64,000 nucleotides of DNA, from NCBI GenBank assembly GCA_041651055.1, contig JBAZJW010000001.1, positions 242,661-306,660 of the forward strand. The letters are read 5' to 3'. The stretch is from Minisyncoccota bacterium. GTDB lineage: Bacteria > Patescibacteriota > Minisyncoccia > Phycocordibacterales > UBA5272. Under the pieces are notes generated by a model. It worked only from the letters and a program-made list of their open reading frames with translations. It had not been told where the DNA came from and searched no databases. Positions within the stretch are counted from its first letter, which is position 1. The number at the start of each line of letters is the position of its first letter. The position numbers and the translations under genes are program-made. Shown here in pieces: positions 2,896 through 63,979 of this stretch.

Positions 2896-3005
2896 TTGCT
2901 TCAGATACGAGGCGGAAGAAATTTTTACGACCAAGACGTACGCATAGTACGTCGCGTGGAGGAAAAATTTCTTCCAACGAAGTAGATGGAGTGATTTTGA
3001 GCTTA
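2896..3005 (-). repeat. R1 structured repeat, copy A, between dnaJ stop and the trpS promoter
   Basis: Shares AGATACGAGG 5' flank, outer stem GGAAGAAATTTTT/AAAAATTTCTTCC, inner hairpin GACGTACGCATAGTACGTC and CGAAGTAGATGGAGTGATTTT 3' flank with copies at 7654, 14148, 39664. Confidence 0.7.
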
Positions 3006-4097
3006 CAAGCCCTCTTCTTTTAACCCGTCAATGTGAGTTAGAGCTTTCTTCGAAAGCTTCTTCGGCATATGAATATCCAATTTCACAAGAACATCTCCTC
3101 TCTTTCCTTTTTCATGAATATACGGAACACCTCGAGAACGCACACGGAGTATTTCTCCTGTAGCTGCACCGGATGGAATGTCGATATCAATAGAACCATC
3201 GAGTCCATCAATCGTATGCTTCACACCGAGTAAGGCATCAGTGAGTTTGATACTGTGCGTAATACTCAAATCGTTTCCTTCACGCTTCCACACTTTGTGT
3301 GGTGTAACATTTATTTTTACATACAAATCCCCGGTCGTTCCACCTGAGACAGCTTCTCCCATTTGTGACATACGAATCATTTCGCCATTTGCGATTCCTG
3401 CCGGAATCGCAATATTCACTTCTTCACGAGAGTTCACAATACCGTTGCCCTTACAATCATGACACTTCTCTTCAGGAACTTTCCCTGTACCACGACATGC
3501 ATCACACGTATGTACGGTCTGGAAATTACCCATGAATGTTTTCTTCACATCATGCACTTTTCCTTGACCATTACAGGTCGTACAGGTTTTCATTTTTGTT
3601 CCAACTTTTGCCCCCGTGCCTGTACATGTCTTACATGTATTTACTTTCGATAGCAAAACGTTTCTCTCTGTACCAAAGATGGCTTCTGCAAATGGGATGT
3701 CAATTTCAAGTGAAATGTCTCGTCCGCGTTTAGGGCGTGATCCGAAACCGTTGCCTCCTTGTCCACCAAATATATCTCCGAATATATCTCCGAGATCACC
3801 AAAATCAAATTCCATACCCTGGAAGTCTGATTGATTGAATCCACCACCGAACCCTCCGAAGCCTCCCGCTTGTGGTCCTTGACCATTGAATGTCTGACCG
3901 TACGTATCGTATTCTTTTCGCTTCTTTTCGTCAGAGAGTGTTTGATAGGCTTCGTTTATTTCCTTAAACTTCGCTTCATCCCCTCCCTTTTTGTCAGGAT
4001 GATACTTGGCCGCAAGTTTATAGAACGCCTTTTTTATATCGTCTTTTGACGCCCCCTTATCTACCCCAAGCACGTTGTAATAGTCTTTAGTTGCCAT
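3003..4097 (-). CDS. dnaJ: chaperone DnaJ
   Basis: J domain with HPD, G/F-rich linker, four CxxCxGxG zinc-finger repeats. Confidence 0.95.
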
Positions 4098-4230
4098 ATA
4101 GTTTGTTAGTATCTTTATACCATAATAGATGAAGGCTACGCAAGTAGTATCTTTGACAATTTATTGAAAAGTTGTAGTATAAGGTTCAATTGTACACGTC
4201 TTCTAAATCTTACACGAAAGGACTTTACCC

Positions 4231-4716: not shown

Positions 4717-4749
4717 GGACTGGCCGTAAAAAAGTCAAAAGCACAACAA

Positions 4750-4790
4750 AAAGCTGGATAGCCCTCTCGGGTTATCCAGCTCTTTTTATT
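4750..4790. terminator. bidirectional intrinsic terminator (GCTGGATA...TATCCAGC with T/A runs either side)
   Basis: 8-bp stem with GC-rich loop and flanking T runs on both strands; serves the 4231 gene and dnaK. Confidence 0.7.
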
Positions 4791-6685: not shown

Positions 6686-6749
6686 ATTTTAAATAGTAAT
6701 TAGTTAGTAGTAATTCGTAATTAGTTAAATTCAAATTCAATTTCTGTGT

Positions 6750-6826
6750 GCTTCTAGCTTCTAGCTTTCAGTTTTTAACTTCCCCTTCTTCGCTTCTAGC
6801 TTCCGGCCTTAAGCTTCTAGCTTCTC
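6750..6826. promoter_or_regulatory. cluster of 3-4 direct repeats of GCTTCTAGCTTC between grpE stop and dnaK start
   Basis: gcttctagcttctagc, cgcttctagcttcc, aagcttctagcttctc. The last copy overlaps the grpE TAG stop. No CIRCE element present. Confidence 0.4.
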
Positions 6827-10159: not shown

Positions 10160-10252
10160 ACAGTTATTAATAATTAGTTATTGGTGGAATCAACACAATT
10201 TAATTGCGAATTTTCCGTATTAACTAATAACTAATTACCAATAACTAATTAC
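10160..10252. promoter_or_regulatory. long inverted repeat (TAATTAGTTATTGG ... CCAATAACTAATTA, 14 bp arms) in the rpsD-rpoA intergenic region
   Basis: Arms at 10170-10183 and 10237-10250 with nested extra copies of TAATTAGTTA; would form a large hairpin in the polycistronic mRNA. Confidence 0.45.
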
Positions 10253-10260
10253 TTTATCTT

Positions 10261-14011: not shown

Positions 14012-14070
14012 GAGTACAGTTTATAGTTTATAGGTGATAGTTACTAGTGGACAAATACGTATAGGCTTCT

Positions 14071-14100
14071 AAATATTCAATGAAACAATATTCAAAAAAA
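14071..14100. repeat. R2 AT-rich repeat copy (AAATATTCAATGAAACAATATTCAAAAAAA)
   Basis: Matches the AAATATTCAATAAA/ATATTCAA units at 33575, 34942, 58211, 59241, 59268. Confidence 0.55.
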
Positions 14101-14147
14101 CACAAAATACTTCGAACCAACTACTCAGAATCACTTTGTTCTAAAAT

Positions 14148-14252
14148 TATTTTAGATGCGAGGCACGGAGAAGCGAAAGAGGAGACGTAGTTAATGCTAC
14201 GTTGACGAATGAGAGAGGCTCCGTAACGAAGCAGATGAAATAATTTTAAGAC
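14148..14252 (-). repeat. R1 structured repeat, copy C, abutting the alaS stop codon
   Basis: TTAGATGCGAGG flank, outer stem ACGGAG/CTCCGT (a different sequence at the same position as in other copies), inner hairpin GACGTAGTTAATGCTACGTTGACG identical to copy D, 3' flank CGAAGCAGATGAAATAATTTTAAG. Confidence 0.7.
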
Positions 14253-16195
14253 AAAGCTGCTTTTATGCGGCGGACACCGGCCGACACAGCCTCTTCTTTT
14301 ACGATTTTGAATGGTCCACTTGTGCTATTTGAGTCGTGCCCTTGGTTGCTACCAAGTGCATCTCGAGTACCAACGGCGAGTACGCCTGTACTCTCGACAT
14401 GCGGCCCACCACACATTTCAATTGAGAATAGATCAGCATCACCACGAGACTTTCCTTCACCTATTCTATAAATACTCACCTTGTCACCATACTTATCACT
14501 AAAGAGGCCCATTGCTCCGCGAGCCTTTGCTTCTTCGATAGATATTTCTTCGCGAATCACTGGAAGATTTTCTTGTATCTTAGCATTGATGATATCTTCA
14601 ACCTGTTTTTTCTGTTCATCGGTCATCTTTTCTCCGTATGCAAAGTCGAAACGTAAGCGCTCAGGTGTAATGTTGGAACCTTTCTGTACAACACTCGGAC
14701 CGAGTACTGTCTGAAGCGCCTGATGAAGCATGTGAGTCGCTGTGTGATACTTAGTTTCCATTTCTCCGTCACCTCCCAATCCACCTTTGAACTTTCCAGC
14801 AGATGCCGTACGAGAACTTTCTGAATGTTTATTTTTTTCTTCCGCAAAACTTACCATATCAACCGCCAACCCTTTTTCTTTTGCCAATTCTTCTGTGAGT
14901 TCAATTGGAAATCCATACGACTGCAGTAAATCAAAAGCATCAACACCAGAAATATTTCCACCCGTCAGCTTTTCGAACTGCTTAATACCCTTTTCAAGCG
15001 TTGCCCTGAATTTAGTTTCCTCTTTATCGAGTTCATTCAAAATTACTTCTCGTTTTTCTTCGAGGTTCTTGTATTCATCTTTGTAGACGTCGATAAACGA
15101 AGCTCCGATTTCTTTGGTGAAATTTTCAGTCACACCCAAGTTACGAGCAAAGCGCACCGCTCGACGAATAAGACGACGCACGAAATACATCTGATCTTTA
15201 TTTCCTGGCATCACACCATCACTAATGAGAAATGTCGCTGAACGAATATGATCAAGTACGACACGGTATGCATACACTTCAATATCACTTGTACCATATA
15301 CTTTCCCTGAAAGTCTCTCGATTGTTTTCTTTGGTGCATCGAATACATCGATATTAAACATGTCAGGGTCATTACGAAGCGCTGCAGCATATCGCTCAAG
15401 CCCACTACCATGATCCACGTTCATTTGAGGAAGCTCTTCAAAGCCTGTGCCTACTTTCTTGTATTGCATGAACACATTGTTTCCTATTTCGAGGAAACGT
15501 CCACAGTCACAGTTCACATGACAAGGCGAGGCCTTGTAAGCACTGTTCTCGTGCATCTTTTTCTCAAGCGTCGGATCAAAATCATAAAACATTTCAGAGT
15601 CCGGTCCGCCTGGTTCACCTTCAGGCATATTTGCTGGCACACCACTTCGTGACCACCAATTCTTCTTCTCACTGTAATAAAAAATCTTTTCGCCGTCATA
15701 TATCCCTCCTTCTGGATTTTCATTTATCTTCGCAGCTATCCCCTTCTCCGCGAAAAGCTTCTGCCACAACTCTGCTGAATAGGTATCTCGTGGCACACCA
15801 AGCGCGTCATTACCTGCAAAACAGGTTACATAAAAATTATTCGGATCGAGTTTAAGTTCATCGATAAGAAATGTCCACATCCATGTAATTTCTTCTTCTT
15901 TGAAATAATCTCCGAATGACCAGTTGCCGAGCATCTCAAAGAATGTCGTATGACGATTGTCCCCCACCTCTTCTATATCTCCAGAACGAAACGCTTTCTG
16001 TGAGTCAGCAATACGAAGCCCGAGCGGGTGAGGTTGACCAAGAAGATATGGAAGCATCGGTTGCATTCCACTGCCCGTAAAGAGTGTCGTTGGGTCATTT
16101 TCTGGTACAAGAGAAGCGCTCGGGACAATGGCGTGTCCTTTCTCTTTCATATATTCAAGAAACTTGGAACGGATTTGGTTGACAGTAAGTAGCAT
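14246..16195 (-). CDS. alaS: alanyl-tRNA synthetase, truncated form (catalytic plus editing domains, no C-Ala domain)
   Basis: Class II catalytic core and editing-domain HxxxH (HTATHMLHQAL), CGGPH; only 649 aa. Confidence 0.9.
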   Translation of the reverse strand: MLLTVNQIRSKFLEYMKEKGHAIVPSASLVPENDPTTLFTGSGMQPMLPYLLGQPHPLGLRIADSQKAFRSGDIEEVGDNRHTTFFEMLGNWSFGDYFKEEEITWMWTFLIDELKLDPNNFYVTCFAGNDALGVPRDTYSAELWQKLFAEKGIAAKINENPEGGIYDGEKIFYYSEKKNWWSRSGVPANMPEGEPGGPDSEMFYDFDPTLEKKMHENSAYKASPCHVNCDCGRFLEIGNNVFMQYKKVGTGFEELPQMNVDHGSGLERYAAALRNDPDMFNIDVFDAPKKTIERLSGKVYGTSDIEVYAYRVVLDHIRSATFLISDGVMPGNKDQMYFVRRLIRRAVRFARNLGVTENFTKEIGASFIDVYKDEYKNLEEKREVILNELDKEETKFRATLEKGIKQFEKLTGGNISGVDAFDLLQSYGFPIELTEELAKEKGLAVDMVSFAEEKNKHSESSRTASAGKFKGGLGGDGEMETKYHTATHMLHQALQTVLGPSVVQKGSNITPERLRFDFAYGEKMTDEQKKQVEDIINAKIQENLPVIREEISIEEAKARGAMGLFSDKYGDKVSIYRIGEGKSRGDADLFSIEMCGGPHVESTGVLAVGTRDALGSNQGHDSNSTSGPFKIVKEEAVSAGVRRIKAALS

Positions 16196-18619: not shown

Positions 18620-18663
18620 AATATGAGAAACAGTATACCAGTTTACAGCTTACAGTCTACAGA

Positions 18664-19868: not shown

Positions 19869-20015
19869 AGATGGAGTATTTACGTTGTTGAAAATAATTA
19901 TACCATATTTTACAAAAAAGTACAGTTTCCCACGACTGAATTCATCTATCTTTACTTTTCATACTGTGGTGGTAGTATTCATGCATATCGTTTTTTCAAC
20001 CAAGGAGAATGAATC

Positions 20016-20309
20016 ATGAAGCTTCAATTTGTGGCCGGTTTGCGTGGAGTCTTTGGGACTCCAACGAAACACAACACTCTTGAGATCTTGCAGGATCAAG
20101 ATGGAAACTACCTTCTGGTCATCCAAGAATCCTGCGGTGATATGGGGGACATGCGCTCAGGAAGCATCAGAATCGAGTCGCCGAGTGGTGATATCTTGCA
20201 GCGCGAAACCTACAAATACATCGCCGGTCTTGCGGCACACATCCACGAGATGCATACAAAGCATCCTGACCATCCGGCATACCGGGTTACCGAAGACCCT
20301 TCAGCATGA
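20016..20309 (+). CDS. hypothetical protein (ORFan P2)
   Basis: 97 aa; canonical AAGGAG SD 8 nt upstream; appears more GC-rich than neighbours by eye; own GC-rich terminator. Confidence 0.6.
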   Translation: MKLQFVAGLRGVFGTPTKHNTLEILQDQDGNYLLVIQESCGDMGDMRSGSIRIESPSGDILQRETYKYIAGLAAHIHEMHTKHPDHPAYRVTEDPSA

Positions 20310-20315
20310 GCCCCC

Positions 20316-20352
20316 GCCGCGGCAGTCGTTTACGACTGCCGCACTTTTTTTA
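20316..20352 (+). terminator. intrinsic terminator GCGGCAGTCG-TTTA-CGACTGCCGC + T8
   Basis: 10-bp GC stem and a T8 run directly after the P2 stop. Confidence 0.8.
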
Positions 20353-20506
20353 TTGTGTACACAAAGAAGCGAAGTGTTTTACCTCAAGATTGATACGAGG
20401 TCAGCATTAGAGACACTGGATCCTCGATAGTCCCTTCAACTTCGTTCAGGATAAATAGTCGAGAATAACACAGGATTCCTAAAAACTATAAACCAGTGAC
20501 TAATAA

Positions 20507-23955: not shown

Positions 23956-24056
23956 AGTTGATAGTTATTCGTTGGTCGTTGGTCGTTATTCGTTAAACAC
24001 GAATATAAATCAACTAAAAGCAGAGAAAGTGACTCCCACCACTTTGCCCCACTAGC
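23956..24056 (-). promoter_or_regulatory. mraZ upstream region with five tandem heptads (AACGAAT AACGACC AACGACC AACGAAT AACTATC on the mraZ strand) and GTGGG-N5-GTGGT-GGG direct repeats 70-95 nt upstream
   Basis: Seen directly; GTGGG/GTGGT repeats at ~10-bp period resemble known MraZ operator architecture. Confidence 0.45.
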
Positions 24057-24159
24057 AACCATTATACTCCACTTTTGTTCTACAGCACTAGGAAATGAAG
24101 TGGATAAGTCGAGAAACAGTTTATAGTTACTAGTTTTTAGTTTCTAGTAAATACCTCAA

Positions 24160-24209: not shown

Positions 24210-24722
24210 TTACAAAAACTTATTATATAAATCAAAAACTTCTTCTGAATACGCAATAAAATGAACCTCTTCAAAAGAGTAATCTTTTTCCAGATAATTT
24301 TTTATTGTTTTAACGGCTATTTGTGTTGCCTCTTCTTTTGGATACCCAAATATACCAATTGAAAGTGCTGGGAATGCAATTCTTTTTATTCCATGTTCTT
24401 TTGCCTTATCTAAAACATTTTTATATGTTAATTTCAGAAGTTCTTTTTCCTTCCCATCTTCTTGGCCATATCGTGGAGCAACTGTATGTAAAATATATTT
24501 TGCTGGAAGTTTATATCCTCTAGTTACTTTAACCTCAGCTTTTTTGCAACCACCGAGTCTTGCACACTCTGAAGATAACTCTTGCCCTGCGGCATAATGA
24601 ATAGCCCCATTTACACCACTACCACCACATAAATACTCATTTGAAGAGTTAACAATTGCTTCTACATTAAATTTAGTTATGTCTCCCAAATAAACTTTTA
24701 TTCTCTTCATTTTAATAATCAA
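24210..24722 (-). CDS. macro-domain protein (ADP-ribose-binding / O-acetyl-ADP-ribose deacetylase, YmdB-like)
   Basis: GDITK...EAIVNSSNEYLCGGSGVNGAIHYAAG macro signature; very AT-rich gene. Confidence 0.8.
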   Translation of the reverse strand: MIIKMKRIKVYLGDITKFNVEAIVNSSNEYLCGGSGVNGAIHYAAGQELSSECARLGGCKKAEVKVTRGYKLPAKYILHTVAPRYGQEDGKEKELLKLTYKNVLDKAKEHGIKRIAFPALSIGIFGYPKEEATQIAVKTIKNYLEKDYSFEEVHFIAYSEEVFDLYNKFL

Positions 24723-25023
24723 GACCCTTTTCTAACATACAAGCTTTATATTCTGATTCATACGACTTAAAATTGTTACTAAAATCGTAATGTTCTCTTG
24801 AAAGAAGTTTATAACAATCTTTTCTAATTTCTGATGGTCTATACTGAAACCAATAAAATAACAAAATAAACACTATAAAAATAGTAATCAATTTAATATT
24901 TTGTCTCAAAAATTTGCCTGTAATTATTTTAATTCTATGCTCTACTGGAAATAAATGCATAACATCATCCATTGTGGTCTCATGTATAGAATTCCCTTTT
25001 TCATCTGTATAAGTTCTTCCCAT
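24712..25023 (-). CDS. small single-TM membrane protein (103 aa from MGRTYTDEK)
   Basis: Start trimmed to avoid lysS overlap; TM LITIFIVFILLFYWF; very AT-rich. Confidence 0.5.
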   Translation of the reverse strand: MGRTYTDEKGNSIHETTMDDVMHLFPVEHRIKIITGKFLRQNIKLITIFIVFILLFYWFQYRPSEIRKDCYKLLSREHYDFSNNFKSYESEYKACMLEKGLDY

Positions 25024-26485: not shown

Positions 26486-26573
26486 AATGAATAGTTTTTA
26501 GTTTACAGTTCTTAGTTTACAGTATACATGCGTATATACATACAATACTAACAAATCACACACTATTCGTCGA

Positions 26574-27091: not shown

Positions 27092-27212
27092 AGTTTTGTT
27101 GCAAAATTATACCACCAAAGGTGTCTTTTTTGTAGATTGACAAAGGTCTTTATTTGTTACATAATACGATTCTCTTTAACGGTTCTTTTTTATTTTCTGG
27201 AGGCACCCCATC

Positions 27213-27743
27213 ATGGTTCGTTTTCTCATTGCCATTCTTACAAGCCTTGTGCTTGCTCCCGCTTTCGCTGAGGAGGTCAGCATCTACCGCGTGAGAAACC
27301 TTCTCAACGGAACCGAACGATGTGAACAACATGTTCGAGACGGAATGACACGAGTCGTGAGCGAGTGCCAGACGAATCGCTGGCTGAGTACTGTCAAGGG
27401 AAGCATGGACGGTAAAACCGAAGTTGCCATGTCACCTGATGGAATCATCTCCAGCATGGGATTCTCGGTTGCTCCGAGAGACCTTCTCCCTGGCATGAAA
27501 GCCTATGGTCTTTCCGTGACCACAGTGAACGGCAAGACTGCCGAACTCGAATTTTCTTTGAGCGCAAGAAGAGAAGGACCCTACACCGTGGTCGAAATTG
27601 TTTCAGCTGGTGGAGCACTGGTCTCCGTCTGCGGTTACACCACAGACTACGACAACCCTGAATGGGTTGACTCCATCATTCAAGACGGCAGAAAAAAGCT
27701 CTCTCACGAGAGCGCTATCCGAATGCTGTTTGTACACCGGTAA
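27213..27743 (+). CDS. secreted hypothetical protein (ORFan P3) with a signal peptide
   Basis: GGAGG SD 9 nt upstream; signal peptide MVRFLIAILTSLVLAPAFA; appears more GC-rich than neighbours by eye; own terminator. Confidence 0.65.
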   Translation: MVRFLIAILTSLVLAPAFAEEVSIYRVRNLLNGTERCEQHVRDGMTRVVSECQTNRWLSTVKGSMDGKTEVAMSPDGIISSMGFSVAPRDLLPGMKAYGLSVTTVNGKTAELEFSLSARREGPYTVVEIVSAGGALVSVCGYTTDYDNPEWVDSIIQDGRKKLSHESAIRMLFVHR

Positions 27744-27769
27744 GACCTGACCAACCGGCCGACTAAACA

Positions 27770-27797
27770 AAACCACCGCAACGGTGGCTTTTTTATT
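27770..27797 (+). terminator. intrinsic terminator CCACCG-CAA-CGGTGG + T7
   Basis: Immediately after the P3 stop. Confidence 0.75.
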
Positions 27798-27896
27798 TCT
27801 CAAAACTCTCCCTTTTTGTCTAGGTCTTGCCTATACAATGTGAATCATTTTATTTTAATAGTGAAAATTGTTTCATTAAATATTTCCACCAAATGT

Positions 27897-31553: not shown

Positions 31554-31751
31554 TGTACTATTCTATCACAAATACAGATGTTAGACATTAGATTTTGGAT
31601 TTTAGATAATGCGAAATAATGCTTTATTTGAAGGCTTTTTACAATATTTTAAAAAACAATTTTTAGTAGACAAAAGGGTGAATTTGTTGTAGAGTTGTAC
31701 GGAAAGTTCATAACCATCACGCGGTGAAATAGTCCGCAAAGAAAGACAGTC

Positions 31752-32111: not shown

Positions 32112-32134
32112 AAAAGCACTAGCCGTCCGACACA

Positions 32135-32168
32135 AAAACCCCGTATACATGCGGGGCCTTTTTATTTT
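32135..32168 (+). terminator. intrinsic terminator CCCCG-TATACAT-GCGGGG + T5
   Basis: After the P4 stop. Confidence 0.7.
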
Positions 32169-33574: not shown

Positions 33575-33662
33575 AAATATTCAATAAAATAATAATCAAT
33601 ATTCAATAAATACACTTCTGAATGAATCCGTTTAAATATTGAGTATTACGTTATTGAATATT
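33575..33662. repeat. R2 AT-rich repeat: inverted pair (AAATATTCAATAAAATAATAATCAATATTCAATAAA ... GTTTAAATATTGAGTATTACGTTATTGAATATT)
   Basis: 14-mer (A/C)AATATTCAATAAA appears twice at 20-nt spacing, then an inverted copy; lies between proS and rseP. Confidence 0.6.
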
Positions 33663-34941: not shown

Positions 34942-34976
34942 AAATATTCAATAAAATAATATTCAATATTCAAACG
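34942..34976. repeat. R2 AT-rich repeat copy AAATATTCAATAAAATAATATTCAATATTCAAACG
   Basis: Near-identical to 33575-33610; the two copies flank rseP. Confidence 0.6.
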
Positions 34977-35102
34977 AATTAGTTGTAGTAGATATTGGGT
35001 CATGATTTTTATCAAGGTCACAATGGTCCTCAATTTGACACAGGTAAGACAGTAACGCATAATACTTTTGGATCATTAACGTTTTTTGAACTGGAGTTCA
35101 AT

Positions 35103-35615
35103 GTGACATACCAAAAAACAGGCTTTCTGAAGAGAGGGCTTTGGGGAATTATCAGCGGCATCGCTGGAGCGCTTTTCATTGGACTTGCCCTCTGGGCCGT
35201 GTTCCGTGCGAACAATGCAAACGCAGCATCAAGCGTAACCACAAACGGCTACTTTGCACAAAAAGCAGCCTTCGGACCACTGAACTGTATGCGAGTGGTA
35301 ACACCCGAAGCGGTCTATTTCATGGCATCAGCGCTCACACAAGATGCCTTGGTACTGAAAAATGTCCGAACATGTCTCGAGCGCGCCCAAAGAAGTCGCA
35401 CCAAACTGGTCGACAAAAAAGAAGGACAAATGACCGCTCGCATACACGCGAGCATCGGAGATCTTCATTGTCTTCAGACAGATATATATGTAATCGTCTT
35501 CGAAAACCGCATACATCCGAAACTCGACGCCATACTTCCTATCTGTTTCGACGCTGCCCGGGAGGGTCACGATAACGTGAGGATGAAAAGGGAATGGTTC
35601 ATGCACTGGATTTGA
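35103..35615 (+). CDS. hypothetical membrane protein (ORFan P5); GTG start chosen
   Basis: GGAG 7 nt upstream of GTG at 35103 (the ORF is open from 34995); TM helix GLWGIISGIAGALFIGLALWAVF; appears more GC-rich than neighbours by eye. Confidence 0.5.
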   Translation: MTYQKTGFLKRGLWGIISGIAGALFIGLALWAVFRANNANAASSVTTNGYFAQKAAFGPLNCMRVVTPEAVYFMASALTQDALVLKNVRTCLERAQRSRTKLVDKKEGQMTARIHASIGDLHCLQTDIYVIVFENRIHPKLDAILPICFDAAREGHDNVRMKREWFMHWI

Positions 35616-36311: not shown

Positions 36312-36360
36312 GGGGGCAGTTATTAGTAATTAGTAATTAGTTGATACATACAATTCTATA

Positions 36361-37023: not shown

Positions 37024-37163
37024 ATGCTTCAAGTATAGCAAAGAATTAGCCTTGCGAGAGATTATGTATTTAAGTAGAATACGCACCAGACTGCTCTTTT
37101 ACAGAAAGAGCTCCTCATATCACCAGTTCTTGGCACATCAACCCTTTTAAAAGAGAGAACGTC

Positions 37164-38330
37164 ATGAAACCAGATCATTCATCTCTTGCAAAAGAGAGAA
37201 GTCGCACGGGTATAGGTACGTTTACTGAAGGTGGAACGGTAGGGAAAGCTATCCGTGACGCAGAAGTCATGGAAAGACGAGCAATGTACGTTATCAAACT
37301 TGATGATAAAGGAAATGTTCGTGAACATTACCGCAACCCCCCTTTTGAAACACTTCTTGATTGCATCGTTGTCCTCGCACCTGCAATATTCCAAGGTGTA
37401 AGAATAGAAGAAGCTGTCGCAATGGAAATTGGCCTGAGTCGTACGGCACCAGGAAAGGCGATTGAAATTAAAGCGGATAGACCTGACTGTAAAAAACAGA
37501 AGGAGGTCATTCAGCAAAGACTACACATCGGAATCCTTCCCTGGCACGTCGTCGAAAAGCTACTACCAACCCTTTGGATCGCAATACAGCAATGTATTGA
37601 TAAAAAAATGGAAGGGTGGACAAGAGCGCGGTTCATTCAGAGCCCAGATTCAGGCAGCGAAAATCGTAACAAGAAACGTCTTTGTGTTTACGAGTCATGG
37701 ATGACAATTCGTGTTCCAAAAGAATATGCGTTGGTCTATACCATACTGCGACTCAAGGACGAATCCGACAAACTGAAGCCTGGAAAAAACTACGCCGAGG
37801 TAGCAGAGTCTGTTTCTCGAGAGCTTAATCTCTTTCGAAATCTTAACCCATCTCATCATGAAAGGTATTCAGATGAAGTCTTAAAAAGATCTGGCACTCT
37901 AAGATGGATGGCTGATTGGATGAAAAAGAAAGTCGAGTTTCATGGTTACACCATGCGCTCGCTTAAAGCTGTGCGGAAATTATTGAAGGAAAGAAGTCCA
38001 CAAGACCTCGCTCTCTTTAATACCGTGTGTCGAGTGTTTAGGGTTCCAGAAGCCCCGCCTGACATTTTTCTTGATGTCCACGAGCCACTGTTGGGTAACA
38101 AGAAAAAACAGCTACTCCTTGAGTGTCCACTCAGACCACATCGGGTGTACAAGTATGAAAAGCGCAGAAAGCTCACTCATGCACACGCACCTGATTGCTT
38201 CACCATTGCTATCGTCGGCAGTCATGCTCATTTGGAGAAGCTTGATGCTCGTAACACTCTCAACCGTATCAAAACAGCCAGAGAAACGAGAAAGTTCGTT
38301 CCCGACGACGACTCAGACATCCCCTTCTAA
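37164..38330 (+). CDS. hypothetical 388-aa protein, first gene of a two-gene plus-strand module
   Basis: No motif recognised by eye; several HxH/His-rich patches near the C-terminus (THAHAPDC, GSHAHLEKL); weak purine-rich RBS. Confidence 0.6.
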   Translation: MKPDHSSLAKERSRTGIGTFTEGGTVGKAIRDAEVMERRAMYVIKLDDKGNVREHYRNPPFETLLDCIVVLAPAIFQGVRIEEAVAMEIGLSRTAPGKAIEIKADRPDCKKQKEVIQQRLHIGILPWHVVEKLLPTLWIAIQQCIDKKMEGWTRARFIQSPDSGSENRNKKRLCVYESWMTIRVPKEYALVYTILRLKDESDKLKPGKNYAEVAESVSRELNLFRNLNPSHHERYSDEVLKRSGTLRWMADWMKKKVEFHGYTMRSLKAVRKLLKERSPQDLALFNTVCRVFRVPEAPPDIFLDVHEPLLGNKKKQLLLECPLRPHRVYKYEKRRKLTHAHAPDCFTIAIVGSHAHLEKLDARNTLNRIKTARETRKFVPDDDSDIPF

Positions 38331-38349
38331 ACATTAAAAAGGAGCTCCC

Positions 38350-39558
38350 GTGAAAATAGCACATCTGTCCGTAGCAGGACTCAACACTTGTAGACAACAG
38401 GTGATCGCTGTTCCTCGCGGGGCACCAATCACCAGCACTCGCTTCTTCGCATCTCACGATGTGTTTGAAAACGACAACATGATCATGCATCTGGCGAAAG
38501 CAGAGGAGCTCATCCTTGCATTAACCGGTGCATACAGACGCGGTGAGTCTATGTTTCAAAGCGTTCGCGCTGAGACGCATGGACCACAGTACACCTATGT
38601 GCCAGGATACGAGCTCGGAAGAATTCGTGCTCGTCGAATGGACTACCTGCCAGGTGTTGAAGGTCCAGATATCAGAGTCATTAAAAAAGGAAGTCCGAGG
38701 CATCTCCTGTTCCTTTTCTTCGCGACACTTACAGACAGAAGGACGAAGAGTGGCGGCGACTTCGGTGTCTATGCTTCACACTGCAAAATCTACCACAAAC
38801 ATCCTGAGCTTTACACCTCATCTGCCATCTCTTGGAACAAGGGCGACCTTGGAAAACTCTTGAGTCGGTACAAAATTGGTGTCCCAAACCAATCCGCAGA
38901 ATATTGGATACGTTGTGCCGAGACACTTTTTGGAAATTATGGGGGAAACCCTGTACGTCTCTACGAAGAACACGGGAGTAACGTGGAAGGTATTCTGAAA
39001 TTCAAAGAAGCAGGAAAAAGGCTTGGCAAAAAAAATGGCGACAAGGAAAGTGGAGACCCTCTCCCTGGATATGGTCCCAAAATTGCCTCGCTATACGCTT
39101 TGTTTCTGGATGCGTTCGGCGCCTTGCCGTTTCCTGAGGATGCCTTTCCTGTTGATGTCCAGGTGCAGAGACTTTTCATTCAGTACGGTGCAATAACCAT
39201 GAAGACAAGAGTGTCAAATGCACTGATGGAAAAAACTATTAGACCCCTCGTGTGTCTTTTGGCCAAATTCCACGGACTGGATAAACAGGACATATCACAT
39301 GCGTTTTGGCTTTTGGGAAGCCAAGGATGCACCTCCTGTTCCCGAAGACTTAATGCACCAACGATATGCCCAATCTACTCGAAGTGCCTCGGTTGTCAGA
39401 ACACCGCGAACTACTTTGCGAAAGGTCTATGGGACCCCGCAGACGAACCAATGAAAAAAGGTGCTGCTACGGTTACGTTTGGAATGCTCGCAGAGCGCCC
39501 CACACGGTACAGCCGGAATCCGACAAAAAGCACCCAGATGCATTTGTTCACTGAATAG
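38350..39558 (+). CDS. HhH-GPD superfamily DNA-glycosylase-like protein with a C-terminal 4-Cys cluster and an N-terminal ~130-aa unknown domain
   Basis: GTG start with AAGGAG 5 nt upstream. HhH motif LPGYGPKIASLYALFLDAFGALPFPEDAFPVDVQVQRL (compare EndoIII LPGVGRKTA...FPVDTHV) with Lys and Asp positions conserved. Cys cluster CTSCSRRLNAPTICPIYSKCLGC. Confidence 0.65.
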   Translation: MKIAHLSVAGLNTCRQQVIAVPRGAPITSTRFFASHDVFENDNMIMHLAKAEELILALTGAYRRGESMFQSVRAETHGPQYTYVPGYELGRIRARRMDYLPGVEGPDIRVIKKGSPRHLLFLFFATLTDRRTKSGGDFGVYASHCKIYHKHPELYTSSAISWNKGDLGKLLSRYKIGVPNQSAEYWIRCAETLFGNYGGNPVRLYEEHGSNVEGILKFKEAGKRLGKKNGDKESGDPLPGYGPKIASLYALFLDAFGALPFPEDAFPVDVQVQRLFIQYGAITMKTRVSNALMEKTIRPLVCLLAKFHGLDKQDISHAFWLLGSQGCTSCSRRLNAPTICPIYSKCLGCQNTANYFAKGLWDPADEPMKKGAATVTFGMLAERPTRYSRNPTKSTQMHLFTE

Positions 39559-39625: not shown

Positions 39626-39663
39626 ATAAAATAAATCCATTCAACATACCAAACACTAAAAAT

Positions 39664-39766
39664 TGTTTTAGATACGAGGAGCCTAGGAATTTTTCTAGGA
39701 GACGTAGTTAATGCTACGTTGACGAAGAAAAATTCCGTAGCGACAAAGTAGATGAAATAATTTTTA
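39664..39766 (-). repeat. R1 structured repeat, copy D, abutting the stop codon of the second mreB
   Basis: TTTTAGATACGAGG, outer stem GGAATTTTT/AAAAATTCC, inner hairpin GACGTAGTTAATGCTACGTTGACG, 3' flank CAAAGTAGATGAAATAATTTTTAG. Confidence 0.7.
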
Positions 39767-40777
39767 GCGTTTGGCAAAGATACTGCGTTTGTAAGTATCG
39801 AGATGTTCAAGAGCTATACCTGTCCCCTTCGCCACACAATAGAACGCATCCTCTGCGAGAACCGCTTTGACCCCCGTACGTCTCTCTACTAAGTCTGGGA
39901 AATGACGCAACATCGATGTCCCCCCTGACATAATAATTCCATTATCAATAATATCTGACGCGAGTTCAGGAGGAGTCTCTTGAAGCACATCTTTGATTGC
40001 TTTAATCATTAAACGAAGTTCTTTATCGATCGCCTTTACAATTTCATTCGTTCGAATCTCTACAGTGCGTGGAAGCCCTGCAATAAAATCTCGCCCCTTC
40101 ACTTTCATGGAAAGCTCTTCTTCAACAGGCAGAGCACTTCCTATTTTTATTTTTATTTCTTCAGCAGTCTGGTCTCCAATCGCGAGGTTATATGTCTTTT
40201 TAATGTAATCAATAATTGCCTGATCAATTTTGTTGCCCGCGCATTTCACCGAAGTACTACAAACAATACCGCCAAGAGAAATAACCGCCACGTCTGTCGT
40301 ACCTCCTCCGATATCGACAATCATTCTTCCTTGCGCCTCATGAATAGGAATACCTGCACCGATAGCAGCCAAGATAGGCTCCTTCACCACGTATGCATTT
40401 CGTGCACCTGCCTTTAATGCCGCTTCAATAACCGCACGACGTTCCGTTGAGGTCACTCCTGCCGGCACAGAGACCATCACATCTGGTTTGAAAAAAGTAA
40501 ATCCACCGAGCGCTTTGTGAATATAATACCGAAGCATCGCTTCTGTCACACGATAGTCCGCGATCACACCATCACGCATCGGACGATATGCAATAATCGA
40601 GTCCGGTGTCTTTCCGATCATGTCTTTGGCTTCTGTTCCCACTGCCATAATCTTATTATCAATTTCAGACACCGCGACGACAGATGGCTCCACAAGGACA
40701 ACGCCCTTTCCTGGGACATACACAAGCGTGTTGGCCGTTCCTAAATCGATACCTAGTTTCTTGGAGAAAAATCCCAT
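39764..40777 (-). CDS. mreB: second MreB-family actin homolog (Mbl-like paralog)
   Basis: LGIDLGTANTLVY, DIGGGTTD; 337 aa; distinct from the copy at 30504. Confidence 0.9.
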   Translation of the reverse strand: MGFFSKKLGIDLGTANTLVYVPGKGVVLVEPSVVAVSEIDNKIMAVGTEAKDMIGKTPDSIIAYRPMRDGVIADYRVTEAMLRYYIHKALGGFTFFKPDVMVSVPAGVTSTERRAVIEAALKAGARNAYVVKEPILAAIGAGIPIHEAQGRMIVDIGGGTTDVAVISLGGIVCSTSVKCAGNKIDQAIIDYIKKTYNLAIGDQTAEEIKIKIGSALPVEEELSMKVKGRDFIAGLPRTVEIRTNEIVKAIDKELRLMIKAIKDVLQETPPELASDIIDNGIIMSGGTSMLRHFPDLVERRTGVKAVLAEDAFYCVAKGTGIALEHLDTYKRSIFAKR

Positions 40778-40825
40778 AATGGGTGAATTATAGCATAAAA
40801 AGTGGAAGTAAGGATTCCCTTAATT

Positions 40826-40945
40826 TTTAATTTTTAGTTCTTAGTTCTTAATGTAATACCAATAATTTAAAGGTCTTTTTGGAATTTTTACATAAAAATT
40901 AAAAATTTAAAACTAAAAATTAACGCTGCCTACAAGGCAGCGTTT
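40826..40945. promoter_or_regulatory. AT-rich divergent promoter region with inverted repeat TTAATTTTTAGTT / AACTAAAAATTAA and hairpin AACGCTGCC-TTGTA-GGCAGCGTT
   Basis: Inverted arms about 70 nt apart; a 9-bp GC hairpin immediately upstream of the priA-like start. Confidence 0.35.
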
Positions 40946-47234: not shown

Positions 47235-47252
47235 ATACCCCCTAGGGGGTAT
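47235..47252. promoter_or_regulatory. candidate CsoR operator: perfect 18-bp GC-core palindrome ATACCCCCTAGGGGGTAT overlapping the csoR -10 (TATACT)
   Basis: Palindrome ends 9 nt before the csoR ATG; CsoR-family operators are TACCC-type GC-rich palindromes. Confidence 0.6.
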
Positions 47253-54960: not shown

Positions 54961-55119
54961 GAAAACACCTCTGTATCTATCGAATATTTTAAGATGAAAA
55001 CATTGAATATTCTACAAAATGTGTTATCATGCATACATCGCCCAATCGGGCACTTTATTTTGGCATCTCCAGTGTTGCATTGCTCTTAGCTGTAAACTGT
55101 AGACTGTCTACTATCTATT

Positions 55120-56595
55120 ATGGCTGTCGAAAAACAAATCCCTGCTGGAGGTGAAACCGTACTTCGTTTTGAAGACGTCACCTTTAATTACAGCGAAAAC
55201 AAACCAGTCTTATTCGAGACTAGTTTTGTTGTACGCAAAGGAATCAAGCTTACCTTAATGGGACCAAACGGCGCCGGCAAGTCAACACTCTTTTCTCTTA
55301 TCATGGGAGAAGCGAAGCCAGAAGAAGGCCGCATCATCGTCGGACAAGATTTACGTATCGCTATTGCAAAACAATTCATTCCTCATACACAATGGAAGCT
55401 TACGGTACGAGAATTCCTCGAACTTGGCTTTGATGAAAAAGTATACGACATCGACAAGCGCGCAAAGGTAGTATTTGAAACAGTAGAATTAAACGTCCCT
55501 CTTGATAAAACTATCAAAGAACTTTCTGGTGGACAAAAAGGGCGTCTCCTCATCGCGCAAGCACTTATTCAAAAGCCTGACATTCTTCTCCTCGATGAAC
55601 CGACAAACAATCTCGATAAAGCGGGTGTACAACTTCTCACCGATTTTATGAAGTCATATGAAGGAACGGTAATTGTTATCTCCCATGATGCAGACTTCCT
55701 TAACTCATTCACACACGGTGTTATCTATATCAATACACAGACATACCAAATCGAACAGTATGTCGGTAACTATTTCAAGGTGGTTGAAGAAATAAAACGA
55801 GAAGTAGAGCGAGCTGAACGTGCCAATTCACAGCTTGAAAAAGAAATTCAGAACAACAAAGATAAGGTAAACTTCTTCGCACTCAAAGGAGGAAAGATGC
55901 GTAAGCTTGCTGCGAAATTACGTGATGAAGTAGAAGAGCTCGAAGACAGTAAAGTGGATGTTCGCAAAGAAGATCAAACCATTAAGCCGTTTACCATTAC
56001 CTGCCAAGAAGATATCGGAAGTGTCATTGTAAAATTCGACTCTGTAGAAGTGCTTCATGATGGGGCACCGGTAAAGAGAAAAGTGAACGTTGAACTTCGT
56101 AAAGGAGACAAACTTCACATCATCGGACCAAACGGTATCGGTAAGACCACCCTTCTCGAAAAGATTGCCAACCGTAATGAAAAAGGTGTAACCATTCAAG
56201 ATGGTATTATCGTTGGTTACTATCGTCAGGATTTCTCAACACTTGATTTTGAAAAGAGTGCCTACCAAGAACTTGCAAAGGTATTGAAGCGACTCGACGA
56301 TCAATTGCTCCGTCGCACGGCAGCAAGCATGTTACTCGGTGCCTCCCAGCTCGCCGCGAAGATCGGGCTCTTGTCTGAAGGGCAGAAAGGATTGCTCATG
56401 TTTGCATACTTGAGACTTCTACAACCTGGACTACTTATCCTAGACGAACCGACGAACCACATCAATTTCCGACACATTCCAGTAATAGCCGAAGCACTCA
56501 AAGCATACACTGGTCCGATGATTATCGTATCCCACGTTCATGAATTCGTGAAAGAAATAGGTGTTACTCAAACACTTGATTTAGGAAAATTATAA
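55120..56595 (+). CDS. ABC-F family ATPase (tandem ABC domains, no TM domain)
   Basis: Two Walker A (GPNGAGKST, GPNGIGKTT), two LSGGQ-like signatures, coiled-coil linker. Confidence 0.9.
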   Translation: MAVEKQIPAGGETVLRFEDVTFNYSENKPVLFETSFVVRKGIKLTLMGPNGAGKSTLFSLIMGEAKPEEGRIIVGQDLRIAIAKQFIPHTQWKLTVREFLELGFDEKVYDIDKRAKVVFETVELNVPLDKTIKELSGGQKGRLLIAQALIQKPDILLLDEPTNNLDKAGVQLLTDFMKSYEGTVIVISHDADFLNSFTHGVIYINTQTYQIEQYVGNYFKVVEEIKREVERAERANSQLEKEIQNNKDKVNFFALKGGKMRKLAAKLRDEVEELEDSKVDVRKEDQTIKPFTITCQEDIGSVIVKFDSVEVLHDGAPVKRKVNVELRKGDKLHIIGPNGIGKTTLLEKIANRNEKGVTIQDGIIVGYYRQDFSTLDFEKSAYQELAKVLKRLDDQLLRRTAASMLLGASQLAAKIGLLSEGQKGLLMFAYLRLLQPGLLILDEPTNHINFRHIPVIAEALKAYTGPMIIVSHVHEFVKEIGVTQTLDLGKL

Positions 56596-56622
56596 ACCGC
56601 ACCCCTCCCTTGGTGCGGTTTA
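56595..56622. terminator. bidirectional terminator AAACCGCACC-CCTCCCTT-GGTGCGGTTT
   Basis: Overlaps the stops of both convergent genes. Confidence 0.75.
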
Positions 56623-56623
56623 T

Positions 56624-57118
56624 TCACTGCATTATTGATTTCTGTTTTACTTGAAATATGTCCACGCGGTAATACTCAGTACTATCTTTCCCTATAGAAG
56701 GGCAAAACGTAAAAAGATCACCATGACTATTGTAGATCTGAACAAGAAAAGCGAAATAACAGACCGCAAGAAGTATCACATCAGCATCCGTTAGTATTTC
56801 CCCTTTCTCTTTAAGGGTTCTAATCTTGGCAAGGAAAAGTGGTGGGGCAAGTCCAAGATCCATATCCATGGAACCAAAGGATTTACTTCTAACAGCTTGC
56901 ATAGCAAGAGGTCTACTAAAAAAGAACTCCTGATCTTGATTCATACCAAAGATGTAGACACCTGCATTGGAGAGGTCAAGATAATTTTCAAAAAGATCGA
57001 AGGCAAAATCCAGTATGGAAAAATCTGAATTATCCTCGTCGATCTCTTCCAAAAAAGCCTTTATCTCCTCTCTGAATTCGAGAACGCTTTTTGATAACGG
57101 AATGCTAAGCTTGGTCAT
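56624..57118 (-). CDS. hypothetical acidic protein
   Basis: 164-aa ORF, no motif recognised. Confidence 0.5.
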   Translation of the reverse strand: MTKLSIPLSKSVLEFREEIKAFLEEIDEDNSDFSILDFAFDLFENYLDLSNAGVYIFGMNQDQEFFFSRPLAMQAVRSKSFGSMDMDLGLAPPLFLAKIRTLKEKGEILTDADVILLAVCYFAFLVQIYNSHGDLFTFCPSIGKDSTEYYRVDIFQVKQKSIMQ

Positions 57119-57217
57119 GCTGAACTCCTTGTATTTGGGGTTTCTGAACTGCTTTCCTCTCTAAGGCTACCTAATTAAAGACATGTGCGCAACTTGTGTA
57201 CATTATTGTAGGTATGT

Positions 57218-60512: not shown

Positions 60513-61276
60513 ACAAGGCGAGGCCTTGTAGCTACAAGGCCTCGCCTTGTTGGTGGCCAATCATAAGCCAAGAAAGAATACTTTCTGTAAAATGTTTAGG
60601 ACTTTCAAAATATATAGGAAACTGAGATGGAGATATAACTGAATTTTCCGAACGTACAATTCCACAATAATCATGAAAACTAGAGTACGGATATTGCCTT
60701 ACAAAATCAATCACCTCTTTTCTTTTACTGATTATTTTTTCTTTCCACAAAGGGTCAACCAGCTTCGCAGGGTTTAGATGTATATACGCATACAAATAAC
60801 GCATATATCTATCATTTCCAGCATGTTGAGATTTAAATGGGCCCTCAAATAATGCTCCCGTTCTTTTATACTTTTTATTAAAATACATTACATATGCAGT
60901 GCATACCTTTTGCATAAATAAAGTGACACCTTCCTCTTCTATCTGTTTAGCTAAAATATGAAAATGATTATCCATGAGTGCATAGGCACCGATGGCCACC
61001 AACGGAGAGTCCTTCTTTGAAAAAGCAAGATCAAGAGACGAAGCGTCTACACGAGAGCGGGGCACTTGATTTAAAAGGCCCAATAATTTTACAAACCGTC
61101 TCCTATCCTGATCATCTTTAAAGATAATTTGTTTACTGTTCCCTCGATTATATACGTGATAATACTCATTTACCGCCAAAACGACACTTCTTTTTGACAT
61201 AGTAAAAGTATATACCCAATACAAGGCGAGGCCTTGTAGTTTTCCCCCTTCCCTAACTACAAGGCCTCGCCTTGTA
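60513..61276. mobile_element. IS200/IS605-type or REP-associated (RAYT) Y1 transposase unit flanked by near-identical palindromic hairpins
   Basis: Left hairpin ACAAGGCGAGGCCTTGTAG/CTACAAGGCCTCGCCTTGT (60513-60550). Right hairpin has the same arms around a 15-nt loop (61221-61276). Confidence 0.75.
60532..61200 (-). CDS. Y1 (HuH) transposase, IS200-like / RAYT family
   Basis: HuH motif HFHIL, catalytic Tyr context YAYIHLNPAK. Start trimmed to MSKRSVVL; the C-terminus runs into the left hairpin, whose centre is the TAG stop. Confidence 0.75.
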   Translation of the reverse strand: MSKRSVVLAVNEYYHVYNRGNSKQIIFKDDQDRRRFVKLLGLLNQVPRSRVDASSLDLAFSKKDSPLVAIGAYALMDNHFHILAKQIEEEGVTLFMQKVCTAYVMYFNKKYKRTGALFEGPFKSQHAGNDRYMRYLYAYIHLNPAKLVDPLWKEKIISKRKEVIDFVRQYPYSSFHDYCGIVRSENSVISPSQFPIYFESPKHFTESILSWLMIGHQQGEAL

Positions 61277-63424: not shown

Positions 63425-63979
63425 TTATGGAGTTACGACAGGAGCTGGATCAACTACTGGTGCGGGAACTGGGTCTACAACTGCCACAGGTGTAGGGTCA
63501 ATGACTGGAGCTGGTACTGGGTCAACTGGTACAGGTACAGGATCTACCGGTGCGGGCGCCGAAGTTGGATCTACGGGCAACGGATCAACTACCGGAGTTG
63601 TTGTCGCGGTATCTGCCGGTATAGTGGTAGTGGTCGTGGCTGTGTCTATTGGAGTAGCTGTTGTACTCGTACCCGCCACCGTGCCTGTCGTCCCTGTTGG
63701 CGCTGGAGCACTTTGTACTGAAGACTGATTCGAAGCGTTCAAGAGATTCGTAAGTGTCGTCTTGTCGATACATACATCTTCGAGACAGAGTGTCTTGGCA
63801 GTGATGCGACCGTTCTCATCGATTGACCATGTGCCGTTGGCTGATGCGAGTGACTTGATGTTTGTAATGGCGACACCGTTTGCATTTAAGTCTACGTTTC
63901 CTGTGGTGAGCATATTTGTCGTCGATGCATTTCTTCCTGCAAGATCAAGCTTCTGATTACCGTTTTCGATGAGCATCAT
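63425..63979 (-). CDS. surface-protein fragment with a Pro/Thr/Val-rich low-complexity C-terminal region; may extend beyond the window
   Basis: PVDP/PAPV repeat tract; the Met at 63979 may not be the true start. Confidence 0.45.
   Translation of the reverse strand: MMLIENGNQKLDLAGRNASTTNMLTTGNVDLNANGVAITNIKSLASANGTWSIDENGRITAKTLCLEDVCIDKTTLTNLLNASNQSSVQSAPAPTGTTGTVAGTSTTATPIDTATTTTTIPADTATTTPVVDPLPVDPTSAPAPVDPVPVPVDPVPAPVIDPTPVAVVDPVPAPVVDPAPVVTP

Follow-up and report, generated by a model that had tools for sequence, protein, structure and literature searches.

How can strong Shine-Dalgarno (SD) sites occur in a genome whose conserved genes start without them? This question is raised by the window analyzed here, a stretch of 64,000 nucleotides (64 kb; contig JBAZJW010000001.1, positions 242,661 to 306,660) from a Paceibacteria metagenome-assembled genome (MAG) of the Candidate Phyla Radiation (CPR, Patescibacteria), with a GC content of approximately 42%. 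Six plus-strand loci of the window are located between conserved minus-strand operons, in gaps of 0.5-2.7 kb. Their open reading frames (ORFs) are herein referred to as P1 (4231-4716), P2 (20016-20309), P3 (27213-27743), P4 (31752-32111), P5 (35103-35615), and P6a/P6b (37164-39558). The initial annotation of the window listed these loci, and all of them were found as described, each ORF standing alone except for the P6a/P6b pair. It attributed their translation signals either to horizontal acquisition, with donor-type signals retained, or to a separate gene class. The latter explanation fits the data. The contrast between core and accessory genes holds across the lineage, and the window probably reflects two coexisting expression architectures, one for core genes and one for fast-turnover accessory genes, in a host with a functional anti-SD.

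Analyzed Loci and Gene Sets

Relatives of the window were collected by a search with the PBP2 gene located beside P3. In total, 44 syntenic loci were found, belonging to Paceibacteria/Nomurabacteria-type MAGs with 38-76% identity. The window is contained in a metagenome contig of ENA ERZ27247363, and its proteins are deposited at NCBI with WC444_* locus tags. The sole other assembly of the window itself, a copy in the Logan assembly, is 100% identical and gives no dN/dS (nonsynonymous to synonymous substitution rate) contrast. SD sites were scored in kcal/mol as the pairing of the 22 nt located 5' of each gene with the canonical anti-SD. The native genes of the window used for comparison numbered 60 for SD sites, 58 for GC content and GC content at third codon positions (GC3), and 59 for -10 boxes. 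Core starts were analyzed for SD energy in the 44 related loci (301 starts) and for the -1 base and start codon in the window together with the relatives (356 starts). ORFs in the intergenic slots of relatives were chosen by greedy non-overlapping selection, with an accepted SD spacer of 2-11 nt, and ORFs antisense to core genes, selected in the same way, were used as controls.

SD Sites in the Window

An SD-type site (-5 kcal/mol or better) was found upstream of five of the seven listed ORFs, vs. only three of the 60 other genes (Fisher p = 1e-4). Textbook SD sites had been claimed for P1, P2, P3, P5, and the gene at 38350 (P6b). This description holds for P2 (AAGGAG, 20002-20007, spacer 8, -8.5 kcal/mol), P3 (GGAGG, 27199-27203, spacer 9), and P6b (AAGGAG, 38339-38344, spacer 5, before a GTG start), whose duplexes reach -8 to -9 kcal/mol. 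The GGAG core of P5 (35093-35096, spacer 6), preceding the GTG at 35103, is moderate (-5.9 kcal/mol), and P1 has only a weaker SD-like AAAGGA at 4217-4222, 8 nt before the ATG (-5.3 kcal/mol). The AGAGAGA site of P6a is also weak (-4.9 kcal/mol), and no SD was found for P4.

The same annotation described nearly all inspected housekeeping genes as devoid of SD sites, and this was confirmed. The three other genes scoring -5 kcal/mol or better are a DHH gene with a TTG start, hyp164, and csoR. The score of csoR is due to an operator palindrome that mimics a strong SD; this perfect palindrome, ATACCCCCTAGGGGGTAT at 47235-47252, overlaps the csoR -10 box and is probably the CsoR operator. The gene hyp164 belongs to an additional SD-led cassette that was absent from the earlier list (56592-57130, minus strand). 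It contains a 164-aa ORF (56624-57118), a strong AAGGAG site at 57125-57130 with spacer 6, and a terminator at 56592-56623. The cassette runs antisense to the genes on either side, and its GC3 is not raised. The window was also scanned in the opposite direction, from the SD motif to the start codon and ORF. Many chance matches were found within genes, but the true gene starts matched were only those of P1, P2, P3, P5, P6b, DHH, hyp164, and an unannotated ORF at the window edge; not a single conserved gene start with an SD was found in the window.

The edge ORF (63425-63979, minus strand) encodes 184 aa and has an AAGGA with spacer 7, a local GC content of 0.465, and no Pfam match. This start is not present in the protein collection, and the ORF is possibly a co-oriented representative of the SD-led set.

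Start Regions of Core Genes

The absence of SD sites from core genes extends to the relatives. An energy of -7 kcal/mol is attained by none of the 301 core starts of the 44 related loci, and one of -6 kcal/mol by 1.7%. In the 356 core starts of the window and relatives, U is found at position -1 in 78% and G in 1%, G is depleted from -13 to -1, and 99% of the start codons are ATG; the starts of greA (27092) and PBP2 (29607) are examples. Extended codon-anticodon pairing, in which U at -1 pairs with A37 of the initiator tRNA, has reportedly been described. Such pairing would rationalize the 78% U at -1 of the SD-less core starts, although we regard it as only a lead.

The initial annotation also noted -10 hexamers ending 5-9 nt before several core starts. 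An extended -10 box is indeed enriched close to native starts: 17 of the 59 native genes have the strict motif TGnTAnnnT with its end 6-20 nt before the ATG, vs. 2.9% expected by chance. In 10 native genes it ends 6-9 nt before the ATG, which would be the geometry of leaderless mRNAs. The distances given for alaS and trpS were not reproduced, as their boxes end approximately 11 nt before the ATG. The native promoter type is represented beside P3 by the extended -10 TGGTATAAT (27106-27114, minus strand) of the divergent core gene greA. Not all core genes are first in an operon or leaderless; SD sites are equally missing from operon-internal core genes (rpsK, rpsD, rplM, rpsI, fmt, and others) and from leadered ones (dnaK and frr).

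In place of an SD, the leadered core genes have G-poor heptad repeats. Tandem 7-nt repeats in 3-11 copies, G-poor on the mRNA strand, were found in leaders or intergenic regions of dnaK, the rpoA region, hyp127, DsbA, mraZ, asnS, mreB, frr, mreB2, and ABC. The arrays are located at 6686-6825, 10162-10253, 14012-14048, 18630-18662, 23956-23995, 24116-24148, 26486-26523, 31576-31607, 36312-36345, 40819-40923, and 55085-55119; the array upstream of asnS, for instance, reads AAACTAA GAACTGT AAACTAA AAACTAT. No such arrays were seen in the SD-led cassettes of the window. The arrays resemble the TAACTGA heptamer arrays that precede start codons in Beggiatoaceae, cyanobacteria, and Bacteroidetes (PMC4679880), and could be SD-independent arrays for binding of ribosomes or proteins.

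Accessory ORFs as Probable Transcription Units

The accessory ORFs of the window are bounded by their own predicted promoters and terminators. In a consensus scan of the first 40 kb, perfect TTGACA promoters were found only before P1, P3, and P5. The P1 promoter (TTGACA/16 nt/TAGTAT, 4153-4180) is the best sigma-70 match in 1-20 kb, and the promoters of P3 (27137-27165) and P5 (35035-35063) are both TTGACA/17 nt/CATAAT, with 11 of 12 consensus positions. Promoter-like sequences were found by the scan before P4 (TAGACA/17 nt/TAGAGT, 31667-31695) and the P6 operon (TTGCGA/17 nt/TAGAAT, 37052-37080). The one before P2 (TTTACT/16 nt/TAGTAT, 19951-19978) was identified by eye and is outside the top scan matches.

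A hairpin and T-run terminator had been claimed for each ORF, and every one of them was recovered. The strongest terminators in the scan of the first 40 kb are located behind P1, P2, P3, and P4, and strong hairpins with T runs were found by folding behind P5 (35640-35669) and P6 (39581-39620). In the P1 terminator (4748-4787), a 13-bp stem is enclosed by A and T runs; this terminator is oriented convergently to the dnaK stop and is probably bidirectional. The P2 terminator (20319-20351), a top match, has a 10-bp stem with 8 GC pairs and a T run. The P3 terminator (27769-27794; A run, hairpin, and T run) is convergent with PBP2, and the P4 terminator (32134-32163) is supported by both folding and the scan.

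The ORFs themselves differ in size and context. P1 encodes 161 aa in the dnaK/dnaJ slot, P2 encodes 97 aa in the methyltransferase/PBP slot, and P4 encodes 119 aa in the mreB/aminoacyl-tRNA synthetase (aaRS) slot; all three are singletons. P3 encodes 176 aa with a signal peptide. P5, in the rseP/frr slot, encodes 170 aa with an N-terminal membrane anchor or signal. A longer, 206-aa reading of P5 from a TTG contains the P5 promoter, which supports the GTG start at 35103, and P5 is called at 170 aa by PGAP as well. P6a (37164-38330) and P6b (38350-39558) encode 388 and 402 aa, respectively. For P1, a protein of 161 aa is called by JGI and one of 88 aa by PGAP.

Operon Junctions as Probable Gene-Turnover Slots

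The junctions that contain P1-P6 vary strongly in length among the relatives: 32-1625 bp for dnaK/dnaJ, 33-3004 bp for methyltransferase/PBP, 37-1786 bp for greA/PBP2, 14-1351 bp for mreB/aaRS, 9-726 bp for rseP/frr, and 65-2428 bp for holB/mreB2. The control junctions are constant. The usual length of mreC/PBP2 is 114-160 bp, with two loci at 261 and 547 bp, and that of frr/holB is 20-82 bp, with two distant loci at 137 and 868 bp. Filled slots of the relatives contain small, mostly unrelated ORFs. The dnaK/dnaJ slot, for example, is either empty (32-92 bp) or contains other antisense ORFs. The only signal in empty greA/PBP2 slots of the relatives is the greA extended -10 promoter; since these slots lack a GC hairpin, the terminator is part of the cassette.

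The SD contrast recurs in these slots. Among the non-conserved slot ORFs, 36% have an SD energy of -7 kcal/mol or better and 50% of -6 kcal/mol or better, vs. 4% of the antisense controls. The distance from GGAG to the start has a sharp maximum at 6 nt and is 5-8 nt in 33 of 69 ORFs, a far narrower range than the 2-11 nt accepted in the selection. The -1 base of the SD-led slot ORFs is C, T, A, or G in 35, 25, 22, and 18%, respectively (chi-square p = 1e-17 vs. core genes), and only 69% of them start with ATG. Accessory-ORF GC3 exceeds that of core genes from the same locus by 0.11-0.14, with a positive difference in 92% of the SD-bearing ORFs. Since the slot ORFs of relatives show the same contrast in SD, -1 base, and GC3, the dichotomy characterizes the lineage and is not peculiar to the window. 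In at least seven further accessory families, every member has likewise retained an SD. The proportion of signal peptides in the SD-led class (31% vs. 19% of natives) is not a convincing enrichment.

A slot occupant of another type was found at 24210-24972 (minus strand), in the variable asnS/mraZ slot. This AT-rich two-gene island consists of a macro-domain (O-acetyl-ADP-ribose deacetylase-like) gene and an 86-aa membrane ORF. It has a GC content of 0.24-0.32 and a GC3 of 0.17-0.18, is co-oriented, has no SD, and is missing from all 44 relatives. It looks like a foreign insert of a kind unlike the SD-led cassettes.

Positional Orthologs of P3 and P6, and a Probable One of P5

The initial annotation regarded the accessory ORFs as ORFans. 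For P1 this stands, as only P1 itself was found among 5.8 billion protein clusters. A word-indexed search of the same clusters found only the query for P3 too, but an exhaustive HMMER search revealed a handful of secreted proteins of approximately 175 aa with 26-34% identity. P3 thus belongs to a small family, and P6b to one of 57 members. No homologs of P2 and P4 were found in the 44 syntenic loci. P1-P6a had no matches in Pfam, PHROGs, NCBIfam, or PADLOC. Matches of P3 to WD40 proteins in the exhaustive search were short multi-stretch hits to repeat proteins and were treated as spurious.

All P3 relatives with readable context, from at least five other genomes including L042, are located between greA and PBP2 and are convergent with PBP2. 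These positional orthologs are only 19-32% identical in pairwise comparisons, while the same genomes show 78-85% identity for greA, 80-85% for asnS, 67-76% for PBP2, and 91% for mreB. In spite of this divergence of the protein, all orthologs keep the ATTGACA -35 box, the TAnAAT -10 box at 17 nt, and a leader of approximately 40 nt. An SD (GGAGG, AAGGAGA, or GAGGAGA) is kept 5-9 nt before the start in five of five orthologs. The GC hairpin is also kept, with its T run abutting the PBP2 stop codon. Conservation of the SD and its spacing, in genes whose proteins have diverged to 20-30% identity, argues that the SD is under selection. Selection on the SD in turn implies that a usable anti-SD would be present.

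Bacteria of this kind are usually considered to be without an outer membrane. P3 is nevertheless modeled as a closed 12-strand beta-barrel (predicted local distance difference test score, pLDDT, 88) with a predicted signal peptide, so that the protein would be a secreted barrel. Its nearest folds are porins (KdgM), the autotransporter beta domain, and LolA-type lipid carriers.

A P6a/P6b unit occupies the holB/mreB2 slot in two relatives, L092 (3809-6224) and L093 (3735-6146). In these loci, P6b is 63 and 41% identical to its counterpart in the window and P6a 43 and 26%, while mreB2 is 95% identical; both orthologous pairs retain SD-like sites. P6a is a basic protein of approximately 385 aa across the unit, and the two-gene unit is always located between holB and mreB2. 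The P6b family, labeled endonuclease III by JGI, is spread through CPR metagenomes and has four invariant Cys residues. Its profile (LPGyGpK...FPVDvhV) aligns weakly to endonuclease III (E = 0.06), and PF00730 was matched in four of 26 family members (E >= 7e-4), with no hit for the P6b of the window; a sequence comparison of P6b with PDB gave no match. P6b would thus be a divergent HhH-GPD (endonuclease III-like) protein. In the rseP/frr slot of L092, a 163-aa ORF was found with a GGAG at spacer 6, an N-terminal hydrophobic segment, and three Cys residues aligned with P5; at 21% identity, it is probably a diverged P5 ortholog. Overall, the orthologs of P3 and P6, and probably of P5, are approximately 20-63% identical while their neighbors are 58-95% identical.

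Composition of the Accessory ORFs

The impression that the ORFs are richer in GC than their surroundings was verified by calculation. The GC content of the listed ORFs is 0.45-0.51 vs. 0.425±0.025 in natives, and their GC3 is 0.41-0.56 (0.50) vs. 0.369±0.040 in the 58 natives (Mann-Whitney p = 2e-7). The GC3 values of P1, P2, P3, P5, and P6b are above those of every one of the 58 natives; the individual values are 0.56 for P1, 0.55 for P2 (GC 0.51), and 0.46 for P4. GC content at first codon positions (GC1) is equal in both sets, so the GC3 difference is one of synonymous usage. Strand was ruled out as the source of high GC3, because co-oriented accessory ORFs show raised GC3 too. Genome by genome, the GC3 of P3 and of its flanks is 0.54/0.33, 0.33/0.20, 0.75/0.61-0.67, and 0.70/0.33-0.35.

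Origin of the Accessory Units

The interpretation given in the initial annotation is partly supported by these comparisons, its horizontal-acquisition branch being the less likely one. Under that explanation, the cassettes would be recent arrivals from an SD-using, GC-richer donor, with promoter, SD, terminator, and codon usage still unameliorated. Their atypical composition is in line with this, as are the polymorphism of the slots for presence or absence and the lack of P1, P2, and P4 in all syntenic relatives. Some slot ORFs do look foreign (in L034, GC 0.56-0.63 and GC3 0.8 in a background of 0.39-0.42), and the AT-rich macro-domain island shows that slots accept foreign DNA. Same-site absence, however, is found for P1, P2, and P4 and not for P3 and P6a/P6b, and is doubtful for P5. 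Wherever retained donor signals could be tested, the explanation fails: P3, P6a/P6b, and probably P5 have positional orthologs in diverged genomes with the signals and the raised GC3 kept. The raised GC3 is present in every P3 ortholog and tracks the GC of the host, which also argues against an old transfer, since amelioration would erase it. The proposed search for donor lineages returned only P1 itself and a lineage-restricted family for P3, with no homolog in other lineages; searches with P1, P2, P4, P5, P6a, and the P6b profile found no relatives among viral contigs. No mobility genes, tRNA targets, or flanking direct repeats were found at the cassettes in the window, and the SD spacing is tightly conserved. 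Recent acquisition is thus an unlikely origin for the set, while P1, P2, and P4 could have come from an unsampled donor. The SD itself appears, from its conservation, to be a maintained functional signal and not a relic of a foreign donor.

Two further explanations concern the nature of the inserts. Antisense placement could point to a dedicated mobile or recombination system (integron-like cassettes, carriers resembling miniature inverted-repeat transposable elements, or homing units) that targets operon boundaries. All seven cassettes of the window are antisense to both neighbors and end in a hairpin, the same junctions are reused across genomes, and a weak IS200/Y1-transposase-like ORF is present at 60532-61224. 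Yet the SD-led accessory ORFs of relatives are oriented approximately 55:45, the hairpins are ordinary GC-stem and T-run terminators of unrelated sequence, no flanking repeat, attC-like consensus, or target duplication is common to the cassettes, and no integrase is adjacent to them, all of which makes such a system highly improbable. It is also very improbable that the whole set of ORFs, or just the singletons, represents GC-richer inserts (noncoding RNAs or element remnants) with chance ORFs and coincidental SD motifs instead of genes. Overlapping frames (20029-20430 over P2; 35141-35575 and 35328-35630 over P5), the disagreement of gene callers on P1, P2, and P4, the uninformative single-sequence AlphaFold2 model of P1 (pLDDT 34), and the missing database matches would suit such inserts. 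Nevertheless, no RNA was found at these loci by Rfam (one tRNA elsewhere in the window only), the confident model and signal-peptide family of P3 and the 57-member family of P6b speak for proteins, and the spacer peak at 6 nt extends over 69 ORFs. All candidates have a GC1 above the GC content of second codon positions (GC2), as natives do (approximately 0.55 and 0.40), and at each locus the promoter, SD, start, stop, and terminator are correctly ordered and spaced. On the basis of this coding-type composition and the complete signal sets, P1, P2, P4, and P6a are argued to be genes.

Two Proposed Expression Architectures

The reading that we favor is therefore that of two architectures within one lineage. 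Core genes would be transcribed from an extended -10 box located 6-20 nt before the ATG, as leaderless or near-leaderless mRNAs, or would have G-poor leaders, with ATG starts, U at -1, and no SD. Accessory ORFs would form self-contained units with a -35/-10 sigma-70 promoter, a leader of 30-77 nt, mostly an SD at 5-9 nt, and an intrinsic, often bidirectional terminator. These units would be placed in open slots at core-operon boundaries, which would serve as gene-turnover hot spots across the lineage. The occupants are restricted to the lineage and change very rapidly, and still keep their promoter, SD, terminator, and raised GC3. The dichotomy, its presence across the lineage, the positional orthology of P3 and P6, and the conservation of the SD and its spacing are direct observations; we infer from them the leaderless transcription starts of core genes, the SD/anti-SD pairing in the host, and a history of P1, P2, and P4 shared with P3, P5, and P6.

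Several points weigh against this reading. An SD is missing from P4, the sites of P1 and P6a are weak, and P1, P2, and P4 are singletons without homologs. In the relatives, the choice of start leaned toward SD-bearing starts, a bias for which the control is imperfect. The analysis covers approximately 64 kb of the host genome. No conserved 16S, 23S, or 5S motifs were found in the window or in 91 loci. A release-factor gene, whose prfB frameshift site would serve as an indirect test of the anti-SD, was not found in 1.26 Mb of loci either. Tsurumaki et al. (2022, PMC9297842) detected an anti-SD motif in only 48% of the 16S genes of Parcubacteria, and the SD-less core fits this known picture. If the lineage is among those Parcubacteria without an anti-SD, the SD could not pair.

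A more speculative extension is that one cell uses two initiation codes, the core genes being leaderless or started at U(-1)AUG and the accessory genes SD-dependent with their own codon usage. The availability of the anti-SD could then switch the accessory set as a regulon, for example by anti-SD sequestration or ribosome heterogeneity, as with bS21 in Flavobacteria. The need for a full set of promoter, SD, and terminator would also filter which new genes establish at operon junctions. We offer this only tentatively.

Comparison With Known Systems

In the literature searched, no description was found of SD use split between core and accessory genes in CPR. Group C of GeneMarkS-2 (Actinobacteria, Deinococcus) has a Pribnow box approximately 10 nt from first-in-operon starts, and promoter-type and SD-type signals within one genome (Lomsadze et al., 2018, PMC6028130). 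The close -10 box and both types of start signals are also found here. In group C, however, internal and leadered genes use an SD, whereas in this host they do not, and only non-conserved accessory genes have an SD. In Bacteroidia, translation is SD-blind and SD-led genes, among them rpsU, are rare (PMC3155529, PMC9976891, PMC13000453). They resemble this host in the general lack of SD in core genes, the G-poor upstream regions, and a minority of genes with a strong SD. In contrast to them, the SD-led set found here consists of many fast-evolving accessory genes and not of one autoregulated ribosomal protein gene, and the core starts have the U at -1 context. The window does not contain the genes of bS21 (rpsU), bS18, or bS6, the proteins that sequester the anti-SD in the Bacteroidia type. 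The Parcubacteria subgroup without an anti-SD (PMC9297842) belongs to the same class and would explain the SD-less core. It also predicts no SD helix, and the conserved, correctly spaced accessory SDs argue that the host lineage still uses one. Genomic islets share with the cassettes an atypical GC3, a lack of homologs, a variable presence, and a location between core operons. They differ in that several cassettes are positional orthologs with maintained composition and have no mobility genes, tRNA targets, repeats, or donor homologs.

SD-poor bacteria have been described before; for the host studied here, a selective use of an intact anti-SD is predicted. The SD, the -1 base, the promoter type, and the GC3 together provide a sequence rule for distinguishing core from accessory genes in CPR MAGs. 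Such a rule matters for gene calling, since callers disagreed on P1, P2, P4, and P5. The present comparison also maps operon junctions as turnover slots that hold secreted and membrane proteins, candidates for the interaction of episymbionts with their hosts.

Additional Repeated Elements

Three further features were observed in the window. A structured element of approximately 100 nt starts at the stop codons of alaS (14110-14260), mreB2 (39630-39780), and dnaJ (2900-3010), and includes a stretch of 30 nt, AGGAGACGTAGTTAATGCTACGTTGACGAA, that is identical at 14180-14209 and 39697-39726. This element may represent a repeated 3' untranslated region or terminator element, or an element similar to repetitive extragenic palindromes (REP). 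The ORF at 60532-61224 (minus strand) encodes 230 aa, has a TTG start and a GC content of 0.36, and matches IS200/Y1 transposases weakly (E = 1e-4, just under the Pfam cut-off). It is possibly similar to REP-associated tyrosine transposase (RAYT) genes, which is of interest beside the repeated hairpin element. Finally, an AT-rich repeat, AAATATTCAATAAAATAATATTCAATATTCAA, is present in direct and inverted copies that flank rseP (33575-33662 and 34942-34980), with additional intergenic copies at 14071-14102 and 27862-27885, and is possibly a regulator binding site.

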